Notes: generated by a model from the sequence alone, not told the origin. 41,026 nucleotides of DNA from Saprospiraceae bacterium (GCA_049241465.1 JBMLQR010000315.1:1-41026); one strand, 5' to 3'. Positions 1,191 through 34,129 are shown, counted from the stretch's first letter. Numbers and translations are program-made.

Positions 1191-2543
1191 ATGACGAATA
1201 ATGCGCTAGTTCAAAATATTTTAACCATTGAGAAGGAATTAAAATGGTTTGAAATGTTTTTAGAGGCTCGTATAGCTCAATTTTTCAATAATGAATTAGA
1301 AGATCCATATCAAATTCATATCGCACCAGATTTATCAGAGGAGGAAAGTATTTATGCTAAATTTGTAAACCGTTACCAACTTAATTTTGGAGAACGACTC
1401 GTTTTATTGTTATGTTTAATTCCGCATATAAAGCCAGAATTGTTGGATTCATTTTTAGTTAAAGATGCTGTTACAGGCAGATTTTATACTATTTTCGGTG
1501 GTGTAGCCGGGCAAAATCATAATGGTTTTTTACCAACCGGAGAAACAGCTGTTTTTTTACTTTCAGGTAATGATCTTTTAGCGAGAACCACTGCCTCTAA
1601 ATTATTTGCTGAAACCCATAAATTTTATATTTTTAATATTTTAAAACTGGATGAATCAAAATTGGGAGAGCCTCGATTAAGTGGTTTACTATCAATTTCT
1701 GAAGAAACGTTGTCTTTGTTAACCTCTGGCAATGACTATGAGCCTCCTTTTAGTTCAAAATTTCCAGCCAGAATATTACATTCTTCCTTGACCTGGGATG
1801 ATTTAGTCTTGGATACCAACGCGTATGATGAAATTGAAACGATTAAAGTCTGGATAAATCAAAAAGATAATCCTGAATGGAATGATGTTAAACATTCTGG
1901 TTGGATGAAAGGCTATAGAGTGCTATTTTATGGACCTCCGGGAACAGGTAAATCTTTGACAGCAACTTTAATGGGAAATGAATGTGGCAAAAATGTTTAT
2001 CGAATTGATTTGTCCCAGATTGTTTCTAAATATATAGGAGAAACGGAAAAAAATCTTTCCTCCTTATTTCAATTGTCAGAAAATAAAAACTGGATTTTAT
2101 TTTTTGATGAAGCAGATGCCCTTTTTGGGAAAAGGACAGAAATGACGGACGCAAAAGATAAATATGCCAATCAGGAAACTTCTTATTTATTGCAAAGAAT
2201 TGAAGATTTTCAAGGTTTAATTATTCTGGCAACTAATTTTAAACCTAATATTGACAGTGCTTTCCTTCGTCGTTTTCAATCTATTGTTTATTTTAAAATA
2301 CCCGGTATTAGCCAACGGGAAAAACTTTGGGAGAAAGCATTGTCCCGATTGCCTGGCGAAAATCAAGTTGATGTTTTAAAATTGGCTGGTGATTACGAAA
2401 TTGCAGGTGGCTTTATTAATAATGTAGTTCAATTTGCCTGGTTGAATGCAAGAAAAAATAATTCAAAAATAATTACAAATCAAGATGTTCTGCTTGGAAT
2501 AAAAAGAGAATATGCAAAGGAAGGTAAAATTTTTAATGATTAA
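1191..2543 (+). CDS. AAA+ ATPase, CIS-associated (Afp15/Pvc15-like role)
   Basis: 450-aa ORF. It has Walker A GPPGTGKS, Walker B ILFFDEADALF and the downstream ATNFKPNIDSAFLRRF region, forming a single classic AAA module after an N-domain of about 230 aa. Assignment to the CIS rests on context and on composition shared with the AT-rich block. Confidence 0.75.
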   Translation: MTNNALVQNILTIEKELKWFEMFLEARIAQFFNNELEDPYQIHIAPDLSEEESIYAKFVNRYQLNFGERLVLLLCLIPHIKPELLDSFLVKDAVTGRFYTIFGGVAGQNHNGFLPTGETAVFLLSGNDLLARTTASKLFAETHKFYIFNILKLDESKLGEPRLSGLLSISEETLSLLTSGNDYEPPFSSKFPARILHSSLTWDDLVLDTNAYDEIETIKVWINQKDNPEWNDVKHSGWMKGYRVLFYGPPGTGKSLTATLMGNECGKNVYRIDLSQIVSKYIGETEKNLSSLFQLSENKNWILFFDEADALFGKRTEMTDAKDKYANQETSYLLQRIEDFQGLIILATNFKPNIDSAFLRRFQSIVYFKIPGISQREKLWEKALSRLPGENQVDVLKLAGDYEIAGGFINNVVQFAWLNARKNNSKIITNQDVLLGIKREYAKEGKIFND

Positions 2544-2661
2544 TTAAATTTTCAGCAACTCCGAAATTTAGTAAAAAAAGGTGATTAATAGATTTCTTTG
2601 TTTTTTGGAAAAGATTGGTTAATTTTAAAAAAATTTCAAAACAAATAAAAAATCAATAAAA

Positions 2662-34000: not shown

Positions 34001-34129
34001 ATCATACGAAAAGAAAATAATGGGGTAGATTTTTTATATTCTGCCGATGAAAATGGCAATCTTAAAAAGTACTTTGTTAATGCAGATGATCAGTTAAATT
34101 GGATTAATAATCTAGCAAAAAGTAAATGA
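31076..34129 (+). CDS. Membrane-spanning P-loop NTPase (nSTAND-like) with a coiled coil and a C-terminal 7-blade beta-propeller
   Basis: 1017-aa ORF. The N-terminus IPFVGSRSFYESEQASFYGRIKQVDDVL...FIALTGQIGSGKSSFLDSGLIPALKKG...WVICKTRPGQAPIRNLAYAL and the Walker B LMIVIDQFEDLF match the N-terminal NTPase of nSTAND/WD40-type conflict-system proteins. A single TM helix (KRYRRNMLIGVVVGIVTISVVSLLAINA, about aa 500-527) is followed by about 190 aa of K/E-rich coiled coil. Seven roughly 40-aa repeats with G-x-hydrophobic strand motifs follow (DDGYLFIGG, TGGVYAINSG, NELVLFSLENG, QKGLYLWKTSG, QNGKILLYNL, LDKTVYFVDL, ENGNLKKYFV). Confidence 0.65.
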   Translation: MATMAKLNIPFVGSRSFYESEQASFYGRIKQVDDVLLLLHKHKFIALTGQIGSGKSSFLDSGLIPALKKGHNGLAGKEWVICKTRPGQAPIRNLAYALSENDLLNPTIKSTPEQHLWIEKKLKEGISGLETVYRQSEIFGKKNLMIVIDQFEDLFLNTDRYNNAAALNEDTNQYINSITGANFAEEIAVYVVIALGTENIIDISPYRRLQDLMNQGQYLLPRISGVDLKRIISNPLVGSKIGVSPESVDTLLAQFGSDMRLLPNLQFLLYKTWSVVKDKNQENIIIQPEDLANVGNIQHCFASHLELHYDHLDERGKQVFEKLFKVLVSTESLGKLTQPRTLAHLSSICESSLEEISTLLLPISRGEEMFLEILPPDISMNTDNRNFQLHKNSLLVIKNENIFIHWDRFRTWLEQEKESREIYKGLITDQLRYDEGKTSLLRPPDLDFIWQWYQQNQPSKIWGEFLVPGYQNAIDYLTLSYNTYKNELLLKENARKNEIKRYRRNMLIGVVVGIVTISVVSLLAINAHNEKRIANRERLVAIKAKEDLAQKKLIADQLNRDLFESKDSINQIVTQLKTKEITINKQNLSLVKKSSDLEKSSITIKEQYKNLEAQIKETKIAVTKAEIAKEKEIVATKKAKTREEFSNIKNQLFLLVGEFLANENPLELIPKLNSKINDYNEISNEVVGTIQPNNTLFQVLNIATTKLEALRNKSSQILKAKAGLRTISNQNGSFLCGGDDGYLFIGGGKNKVDIGERIRATLPLKNEPFALIGTFTGGVYAINSGKAPNKLLNSSSNMPAVALLNAFKYGEYLLATQNELVLFSLENGVISKSMLRDKLLSIVPLTDQNKFLLSTQKGLYLWKTSGEIESLIQLGSGEFSNPVSAMTLSRNIISFGFQNGKILLYNLSEFLQNVRINPKEKFVFHRTDITKILFFEDKLFSSSLDKTVYFVDLKLENSAAYAVKLVDNNSWVWDIIIRKENNGVDFLYSADENGNLKKYFVNADDQLNWINNLAKSK

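Follow-up and report, generated by a model that had tools for sequence, protein, structure and literature searches.

A contractile injection system of a Saprospiraceae bacterium and its conserved, putatively envelope-associated accessory genes

We describe a locus at positions 1191-34129 of a 41,026-nucleotide stretch of DNA from a Saprospiraceae bacterium (GCA_049241465.1, JBMLQR010000315.1:1-41026; "the window" below means this whole stretch). Judging from profile and structure-database matches, the locus encodes a complete contractile injection system (CIS) of the Afp/PVC superfamily, with all core parts encoded. As far as we have searched, what is new is the company that these genes keep: genes for a 334-aa protein, a DUF4407 protein, a 395-aa protein, an 86-aa protein, a STAND/WD40 protein, and a TonB-receptor-like protein form a conserved CIS-linked module across the Bacteroidota. 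On balance, and with moderate confidence, we think that the machine is a clade-Ib CIS, similar to SalCIS of Salmonella and to the type VI secretion system subtype iv (T6SSiv), and that it assembles in the cytoplasm on a platform in the envelope and is fired outward on contact instead of being released. The host of the locus is an uncultured freshwater member of the Bacteroidota (Saprospirales).

Several observations point to the envelope. The closest solved relatives of the system are envelope-associated: the sheath, the baseplate protein Cis11, and the cap adaptor all lead to SalCIS. The accessory genes travel with CIS genes through rearrangements, and they share with them a low GC content at third codon positions (GC3). 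The length of the tape measure also resembles that in the anchored relatives, which have long tails (420 and 600 nm). Finally, a membrane protein with a glycoside hydrolase family 18 (GH18) domain has the architecture of SalCis20, a hydrolase of SalCIS, and has SleL as its best neighbor.

Organization and composition of the locus

A map of open reading frames (ORFs) places 22 tightly packed genes at 1191-34129. An operon of 19 genes on the minus strand spans 30954 down to 5489 (counting a 65-aa ORF at 21317-21514), two plus-strand genes converge on it, and one plus-strand gene diverges from it. This agrees in both gene count and coordinates with a first-pass annotation, which had been made from the sequence alone. 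The intergenic gaps within the operon are 0-86 nt, and there are several overlaps: the PAAR and gp25 genes share 28 nt (18505-18532), and several other pairs overlap by 1-4 nt, which is consistent with translational coupling. Where the operon ends, the TonB-receptor-like and tape-measure genes converge with their stop codons just one base apart (5487-5489), so there is no room for a terminator between them. The divergent intergenic region (30955-31075) is a spacer of 121 bp that reads as AT-rich and presumably carries promoters for both directions.

The composition of the locus sets it apart from its surroundings. GC3 is 0.20-0.29 in all 22 genes, as compared to 0.30-0.46 in the flanking genes, and the shift falls exactly at the AAA and STAND genes. 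Total GC content is 0.316 at 1191-34129 and 0.407 in the flanks. In its composition, the locus resembles a distinct island, and its borders are sharp. Because the GC3 signature is common to all 22 genes, it gives independent support for the view that the ATPase, TonB-receptor-like, and STAND genes belong with the tail operon.

Conservation of the accessory genes alongside CIS genes

By synteny, the accessory genes are linked to CIS genes: their families recur with CIS genes in dozens of Bacteroidota loci and in several gene orders (individual loci are given by L numbers). The arrangement in L032 equals that of the window. The window's order is also found in L038, L040, L042, L045, and about 20 metagenome loci; in L038 (from a marine member of the Flavobacteriaceae) and L040 (from a complete 4.3-Mb genome), it holds from the 334-aa-like gene to the spike. 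L038 also has a divergent STAND gene, and the collection indexes the GH18 protein of L038 in 71 blocks. L041 (Lewinellaceae) has the same genes, rearranged. In L037 and L122, the order is tape measure, AAA, 334-aa, DUF4407, 395-aa, GH18, and 86-aa, convergent with an nSTAND1-(WD40)-TonB-receptor-like block, and the proteins are 23-48% identical to those of the window. In L034, L036, and L123, a single strand carries DUF4407-395aa-GH18-(small ORF)-nSTAND1-WD40 and then the TonB-receptor-like gene. Finally, in L017, the nSTAND1 and TonB-receptor-like genes lie immediately before the cap gene.

Smaller groups of these genes are also kept together. The 86-aa, cap, adaptor, and sheath genes keep their order in all Saprospiraceae loci (around sheath homologues), the 86-aa gene directly precedes the cap gene in L001-L017 and in about 20 metagenome loci, and the cap gene is upstream of the sheath gene in several proteobacterial loci too. 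Homologues of the AAA protein (46-48% identity) are encoded directly after the tape-measure gene in L037, L046, L081, and L122, and the gene after AAA in these same loci encodes a homologue of the 334-aa protein. Homologues of the TonB-receptor-like protein were found with CIS or accessory genes in 7 of 9 contexts (with L017 counted).

We also scanned metagenome contigs with the DUF4407 profile, which gave 80 loci, 44 of them with at least 6 kb downstream of the DUF4407 gene. A GH18 gene is present in 24 of these 44 loci, and in 21 of those 24 the genes run on into cap and sheath. Among the CIS-type loci with at least 5 kb upstream (n = 20), the STAND gene is divergent in 13, and the tape-measure and AAA genes lie upstream in 2. 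The other DUF4407 loci represent a separate subfamily without a CIS link, directly after genes for a BlaI-like repressor and a BlaR1/M56-like sensor. In this second subfamily, the match to DUF4407 ends near residue 300 (L084, L093, L098, and L109; Pfam was checked for L093 and L098).

In one JGI contig (L039, Ga0645785_00024), STAND, WD40, and TonB-receptor-like genes form one block and 334aa-DUF4407-395aa-GH18 another; the two adjoin back to back, and the nearest 10 kb hold no tail gene. This suggests that the accessory genes are a separable module that can be encoded apart from the structural operon.

The accessory proteins

Five genes, all on the minus strand, precede the cap gene in the operon. 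The first-pass annotation had described four of the five products as membrane or exported proteins, and a hydropathy scan and AlphaFold2 (AF2) models bear this out. The exception is the product of the first operon gene, a 334-aa protein (29950-30954) without a transmembrane (TM) helix, which is predicted to be cytoplasmic and which matched no family in Pfam or in other family searches. Its gene comes after the ATPase gene in other arrangements. The protein evolves fast and is a candidate cargo or loading factor.

The next gene (28800-29891) encodes a putative inner-membrane protein with a DUF4407 match (E = 1.5e-70). Its AF2 model (pLDDT 80.7) shows four TM helices and a hairpin that is about 9 nm long and is built from two helices, of 60 and 55 residues. 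The four cysteines at the tip of the hairpin (C174, C176, C180, and C191) do not vary among 33 homologues. The hairpin probably lies in the periplasm, judging from positive charges in the N-terminus and in the loop between TM2 and TM3. In a Foldseek comparison, no PDB entry matched this fold below E = 0.03 or with a TM-score above 0.26. The 395-aa protein (27612-28799) is probably exported, as the hydropathy scan indicates a signal peptide. It has no match in Pfam, NCBIfam, PHROG, or PADLOC, but syntenic homologues are found in distant loci at 22-27% identity.

The fourth gene (25876-27615) encodes a putative membrane-anchored, SleL-like hydrolase of 579 aa (Glyco_hydro_18, E = 7.5e-33). The hydropathy scan gives it an N-terminal signal sequence and three C-terminal TM helices (at 487-569 in the AF2 model). 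The model (pLDDT 77.8) has a confident TIM barrel, predicted to be periplasmic, and the folds that match it best are those of SleL, a spore-cortex-lytic enzyme (4s3k and 4s3j). A cysteine after the signal helix, C24, is invariant (the family consensus is SSC), and the protein may also be a lipoprotein, that is, tethered at both ends. GH18 enzymes usually carry an aspartate at the third position of their catalytic motif; here the motif is DGVDLNFE, with an invariant asparagine at the position of the third aspartate, which may lower catalysis. The last of the five genes (25607-25867), directly upstream of the cap gene, encodes an 86-aa protein with two TM helices (hydropathy scan). We considered and rejected the idea that the accessory genes are an anti-phage defense system: PADLOC defense models gave no match to the accessory proteins beyond a generic AAA.

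The three remaining genes are on the plus strand. The AAA+ ATPase is Cis15/Afp15-like (1191-2543; Pfam AAA, E = 3.5e-29). The TonB-receptor-like, putatively outer-membrane protein encoded next to it (2662-5487; 941 aa; Plug, E = 1.3e-14) has a signal peptide, a helical N-terminal extension, a plug, and a C-terminal region of about 685 aa that has no match; PF00593 is recorded in just two members of the family. The first-pass annotation had paired the ATPase, on the opposite strand from the tail genes, with an outer-membrane barrel. The pairing is seen, and the likeness to a receptor is confined to the plug.

The divergent gene (31076-34129) encodes a putative bitopic STAND NTPase, as annotated: nSTAND1 matches residues 10-436 (E = 8.5e-52), WD40 matches residues 834-960 (E = 1.7e-4), and a single TM helix lies between them at 507-525 by the hydropathy scan. 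The predicted topology puts nSTAND1 in the cytoplasm and the WD40 beta-propeller in the periplasm. The protein has no PDB sequence match.

Some relatives have further genes near those for the TonB-receptor-like and STAND proteins. In L033, L034, L035, L036, L122, and L123, WD40 proteins of about 870-980 aa adjoin the TonB-receptor-like homologues. Those of L122 (874 aa) and L035 (983 aa) are bitopic and align to the middle of the STAND protein, namely its TM helix and the adjoining region. After the receptor-like gene, L034, L035, L036, and L122 carry a gene for a multi-helix protein (about 820 aa) with a weak MFS match. The window has neither a separate WD40 gene of this size nor the multi-helix gene. 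In L040, the divergent upstream slot that STAND occupies in the window is taken by an eCIS_core (DUF4157) gene (4907-8551), and in L041 a short eCIS_core gene (4322-4813) lies beside the STAND gene. Genes with eCIS_core are typical markers of CIS cargo toxins.

Structural proteins and their solved relatives

The structural genes, all on the minus strand, begin with the cap gene, which leads the block instead of trailing it, as had been noticed from the sequence. The cap, Cis16a (25056-25601), belongs to DUF4255 (Pfam Pvc16_N, E = 6e-31). Between the cap and the sheath lies a gene for a 280-aa protein (24198-25040), the cap adaptor Cis16b, whose sole PDB match is "SalCis16b - cap" (E = 5.9e-11, residues 8-267). 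The contractile sheath Cis2 (22613-24112) matches Phage_sheath_1C with its C-terminal domain (Pfam, E = 7.8e-14). Among PDB sequences, its best match is SalCIS (E = 1.4e-155, over the full length), followed by AlgoCIS (E = 2.7e-99) and tCIS (E = 8.2e-93). By this ranking of PDB matches, rather than by a tree, the sheath clusters with the SalCIS type (SalCis2).

The sheath gene is followed by genes for the main inner tube Cis1 (22111-22581; Phage_T4_gp19, E = 7.8e-42) and a second, Cis5-like tube paralogue (21518-22024; Phage_T4_gp19, E = 9.6e-28). The 65-aa ORF (21317-21514; DUF5908, E = 3.5e-12) is Cis6/Afp6-like and has a counterpart in the equivalent position in L038 and L040; its product is a candidate spike or tube plug. 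The tube initiator Cis7 (20625-21317; 230 aa; CIS_tube, E = 3.3e-23) has a LysM-type C-terminal domain and aligns end to end with the "LysM domain-containing protein" Alg7 (PDB sequence search, E = 1.9e-31). Then come the VgrG-like spike Cis8 (18807-20615; Phage_base_V, E = 8.5e-17, and Phage_GPD, E = 1.5e-6), the PAAR spike tip Cis10 (18505-18795; PAAR_motif, E = 9.8e-24), and the gp25-like wedge Cis9 (18089-18532; GPW_gp25, E = 1.8e-17).

Two large baseplate ORFs have no significant Pfam match and were identified by their PDB matches. The first is Cis11 (14295-18074; 1259 aa), a gp6- or Baseplate_J-like baseplate and cage protein, which matches SalCis11 best (E = 2.5e-88), then Alg11 (E = 7.7e-86), All3317 of tCIS (E = 3.7e-77), and then Pvc11 and Afp11. 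The second is the gp6/gp7-like wedge Cis12 (10755-13529; 924 aa), which matches Alg12 (E = 2.6e-71), All3315 of tCIS (E = 1.2e-70), and SalCis12 (E = 1.3e-45). Between them lies a gene for a short fiber-like protein of 247 aa (13545-14288), which matches the Bdellovibrio fiber bd2133 (E = 8.9e-8), a PHROG tail fiber (E = 1.3e-4), and, weakly, the N-terminus of AfpX13 (E = 0.14). This protein is a candidate for a Cis13-type anchor between baseplate and membrane. It is the only fiber-like protein in the window, which has no tail fiber of the Afp13 or Alg19 type or other receptor-binding protein. The hydropathy scan found no TM helix in the 247-aa protein or in any other structural protein, so any anchor must be supplied by the accessory genes.

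The last gene of the operon encodes the tape measure Cis14 (5489-10741; 1750 aa), which matches CIS_TMP at its C-terminus (residues 1355-1749, E = 2.5e-104) and has no PDB sequence match. It contains a 390-nt tandem repeat (8384-9201, 2.1 copies, 83% match), that is, a 130-aa duplication. Among relatives, the tape measure is shorter in L032 (1608 aa) and longer in L122 and L037 (1990-2033 aa), which suggests that tail length is polymorphic.

Overall, the ORFs that had been assigned to Afp/PVC-type parts do match CIS families in profile searches or, for the Baseplate_J-like and second wedge proteins, in the PDB.

Comparison with known systems

Among solved systems, SalCIS from Salmonella enterica subsp. 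salamae gives the best matches to the sheath, to Cis11, and to the cap adaptor. SalCIS is encoded by a bidirectional operon in which the cap gene (SalCis16a) comes first and the cap adaptor (SalCis16b) second; two HEXXH cargo genes and the gene for an AAA ATPase lie on the other strand. The protein SalCis20 combines a Sec signal with a SleL-like hydrolase domain in the periplasm and three TM helices, and it forms a stable dimer in the inner membrane; SalCis13 is trimeric and is the proposed membrane anchor. The tails are 600 nm long and are seen beside the inner membrane, and release was not detected. SalCIS is said to represent a "distinct cluster of CISs" that are probably associated with the inner membrane and have a non-canonical gene order, and a SalCgo2-type HEXXH effector is stated to be present in all operons of the cluster (all from Ejaz et al., Nat Commun 2026, PMC13266070).

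Like SalCIS, the window has the cap gene in the leading position with the cap adaptor next to it, encodes its AAA ATPase on the strand opposite to the tail genes, and lacks TssJLM. Both have a Cis11/Cis12 cage and a small Cis6, and where SalCIS has SalCis13 in place of long fibers, the window has a short candidate of the Cis13 type. Also, the GH18 protein would be the counterpart of SalCis20, given the signal sequence, the SleL-like domain, the three helices, and the shared neighbor SleL. Some features differ. SalCIS is from the Pseudomonadota, whereas our locus is from the Bacteroidota, and the SalCIS hydrolase has 775 aa and is encoded at the end of the operon, whereas that of the window has 579 aa and is encoded upstream of the cap.

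The second close comparison is to T6SSiv, which was described in Aureispira sp. CCB-QB1 and Candidatus Amoebophilus asiaticus (Lien et al., 2024; Boeck et al., 2017). These hosts belong to the same phylum as ours and their systems to clade Ib, and the window shares with them the Cis11 cage and the long tape measure. Aureispira is also a member of the Saprospiraceae, and the closest genome matches of the window are to assemblies from the Saprospiraceae and Haliscomenobacteraceae. In Aureispira, T6SSiv has its anchor in the inner membrane, measures 420 nm, and kills prey. It has a trans-envelope complex of C6 symmetry, with parts in the outer membrane, the periplasm, and the inner membrane and with antennae outside the cell; none of these have been assigned to genes, and the antennae remain after the tail is lost (bioRxiv 10.1101/2024.01.29.577165). 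The accessory module of the window holds candidates for each compartment of this complex. On the other hand, the 132-nm extracellular antenna has no candidate in the window, and anchoring, which was seen in cells for T6SSiv, is a prediction for the system of the window.

AlgoCIS of Algoriphagus machipongonensis (Xu et al., 2022, PMC8894135) is a clade-Ib system with a cap adaptor, plug, and cage, and Alg7, Alg11, and Alg12 are strong matches to the proteins of the window. It differs in that it is a free, extracellular CIS (eCIS) with Alg19 tail fibers and DUF4157 cargo; also, its sheath has 692 aa and aligns to the sheath of the window by its C-terminal part only. The clade-Ia eCISs Afp and PVC have the same 16-part core, and their sheath, Cis11, and Cis12 chains are weaker but significant matches. 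As compared to these systems, the window has one sheath gene instead of three, a leading cap gene with an adaptor, an inverted ATPase gene, and a membrane module, and it has no Afp13 fibers and no downstream toxin genes. With TssJLM of the canonical T6SS, there may be a functional analogy only, in that an envelope-spanning platform is encoded with tail genes and a peptidoglycan-remodeling enzyme. TssJLM has no homology to the module and is absent from the window, and the Aureispira complex is C6, not C5.

These comparisons change how the peculiarities of the locus should be read. Four of them, all of which are present in the sequence, had been taken to set it apart from the Afp/PVC parts list, and three of the four (the leading cap, the ATPase on the other strand, and the upstream membrane hydrolase) are features of SalCIS that were published in 2026. 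Similarly, the "further mode" of CIS action that was suggested for the accessory set is most likely the envelope-associated mode that has been reported for SalCIS and Aureispira. The layout is not new, then, as it is shared with SalCIS and as the same order occurs in many Bacteroidota contigs. What holds of the claim to novelty concerns the other accessory genes: in the literature, we found no description of DUF4407, the 395-aa, 86-aa, or 334-aa proteins, a TM STAND/WD40 protein, or a TonB-receptor-like protein as CIS partners. In particular, the main text of PMC13266070 does not mention DUF4407 or TonB and describes no STAND NTPase (the 395-aa, 86-aa, and 334-aa proteins were not searched for there).

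A proposed role at the envelope

We propose that the tail would assemble in the cytoplasm on a platform embedded in the envelope. The 247-aa short fiber would tie the baseplate to the inner membrane by docking on the GH18 protein, and the GH18 protein, in the inner membrane, would open or remodel the peptidoglycan locally, as proposed for SalCis20. The DUF4407 protein (with its periplasmic hairpin), the 395-aa protein, and the 86-aa protein would be inner-membrane and periplasmic parts of a trans-envelope complex, and the TonB-receptor-like protein would be its outer-membrane part. The STAND protein would read a signal from the periplasm or the outer membrane via its WD40 propeller and would couple it to assembly or firing by nucleotide-dependent oligomerization in the cytoplasm. 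Finally, the AAA+ ATPase would act in assembly or loading. We did not identify a payload in the window.

The accessory membrane genes are candidates for the anchor and the trigger of such machines. A more specific idea, which is possible but which we hold only tentatively, is that a seven-part module makes up a T6SSiv-type trans-envelope complex and contact sensor of the Bacteroidota, unrelated to TssJLM and gated by STAND. Its parts would be the five upstream proteins (334-aa, DUF4407, 395-aa, membrane GH18, and 86-aa) together with the bitopic nSTAND1/WD40 protein and the TonB-receptor-like protein.

Several points weigh against an anchored, contact-fired machine, or at least against parts of this proposal. 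First, the functional roles are inferred from homology, topology, and synteny. Second, the cargo that accompanies SalCIS is missing: the neighbors of the ATPase gene in SalCIS are HEXXH cargo genes, but in the window the neighbor is the TonB-receptor-like gene, no HExxH motif was found in the 26 window proteins that were scanned (the 65-aa DUF5908 ORF was not among them), and no window protein has a Pfam match to DUF4157/eCIS_core. Third, the PDB matches of the GH18 protein, by sequence or by fold, did not include SalCis20 itself. Fourth, just residues 120-256 of the TonB-receptor-like protein match solved TonB-dependent transporters (the plugs of BtuB and Cir), and two homologues (L033 and L035) are encoded amid housekeeping genes, with no CIS gene within 10 kb. 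Fifth, the comparison with Aureispira draws on published descriptions of its system. Contact-triggered firing of T6SSiv is itself a hypothesis only (Lien et al., 2024, bioRxiv 10.1101/2024.01.29.577165). Finally, a membrane-bound wall hydrolase with small membrane proteins also fits a lysis cassette.

Alternative explanations

This last point leads to the strongest alternative, which we consider unlikely: the machine could be a released eCIS like AlgoCIS, Afp, or PVC, with the DUF4407, 395-aa, GH18, and 86-aa proteins as a lysis cassette resembling holin, endolysin, and spanin, and with the TonB-receptor-like and STAND genes as regulators or bystanders. The 86-aa two-helix protein is holin-like in size and topology. 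The GH18 domain is closest to an enzyme that lyses spore cortex, but the invariant asparagine in place of the third aspartate may weaken its catalysis, and SalCis20, which shares its architecture, is a stable inner-membrane dimer in a system for which release was not detected. Rhapidosomes, which would fit release, were reportedly isolated from lysed Saprospira cells. According to Lien et al., rhapidosomes (Lewin and Kiethe, 1965) are likely T6SSiv structures. AlgoCIS, which likewise belongs to clade Ib and has a cap adaptor and a cage, is free; yet the text of the AlgoCIS paper names no transmembrane or hydrolase component in its cluster of 18 ORFs (PMC8894135), and the window has no fiber of the Afp13 or Alg19 type and no other receptor-binding protein. 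Furthermore, the block stays tied to an outer-membrane protein and a TM sensor through many rearrangements.

A second alternative, which we find less probable still, is that the CIS is intracellular or defensive and acts on the envelope of its own producer, leading to death induced by stress or phage, as for the Streptomyces CIS and CisA, with STAND as the danger sensor. STAND NTPases are typical immune or death switches, but the sensor domain of this one is predicted to be periplasmic, not cytoplasmic, and no PADLOC defense model was matched. The authors of the SalCIS study raise a "domesticated/defensive role" (PMC13266070), and a membrane adaptor, CisA, is described as required for firing in Streptomyces (PMC12237407). 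Against this, Aureispira, a relative within the Saprospiraceae, kills prey with its system, and an outer-membrane partner is hard to explain in a device that acts purely inward.

A third reading, that the accessory genes are chance neighbors (the TonB-receptor-like protein being a nutrient transporter, and STAND and DUF4407 being separate systems), is disfavored and seems very improbable to us: it can draw on the housekeeping surroundings of the receptor-like genes in L033 and L035 and on the DUF4407 subfamily that follows BlaI/BlaR1-like genes without a CIS link, but it does not account for the finding that these genes recur beside those of a CIS in at least four different arrangements (21-48% identity), for the operon gaps of 0-86 nt, or for the GC3 signature common to the 22 genes.

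Borders and close relatives of the locus

To the left of the locus lies an XdhC-like gene, and to the right lie genes for GGT, a cytochrome/LRR membrane protein, and DUF1501/PSD1. In the relative L032, another 10 kb to the left holds housekeeping genes. Profiles for capsid, terminase, and replication proteins and for TssB/C, ClpV, and TssJLM gave no match in any window ORF of at least 80 aa (Pfam and NCBIfam), which upholds the first-pass annotation on this point, and the window contains no tRNA and no Rfam family. We also inspected the flanks for the capsid and terminase genes that would make the locus a prophage tail module, and found housekeeping genes only, including in the 10-kb left flank of L032. 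Thus, a prophage tail module is ruled out by the absence of head, terminase, and replication genes and of tRNA and by the housekeeping flanks, and a canonical T6SS is ruled out by the absence of TssB/C, ClpV, and TssJLM.

One contig, from the metagenome-assembled genome "Haliscomenobacteraceae bacterium ZE-Jul18-90", matches the sheath gene at 100% identity and other genes at 95-99%, so the window is a very close relative of that contig and not the same sequence. The next closest genome matches to the sheath gene are in freshwater Saprospiraceae assemblies. In the close relatives L002 and L042, the sheath, main tube, cap, and GH18 proteins are 93-99% identical to those of the window; the second tube paralogue, Cis7, and VgrG (18807-22024 in the window) are just 73-81% identical, and the 334-aa and DUF4407 proteins (28800-30954) are 62-89% identical. 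This mosaic pattern could reflect recombination or faster evolution of the spike-proximal, 334-aa, and DUF4407 genes.

Implications

T6SSiv-type machines kill prey in Saprospiraceae predators, and for their membrane parts, SalCIS supplies one protein. The locus and its relatives turn this into a short and concrete list of candidates for the anchor and the trigger. In our survey of relatives, the lineage is common in freshwater and marine Bacteroidota, and so it likely matters for predation and competition in the plankton.

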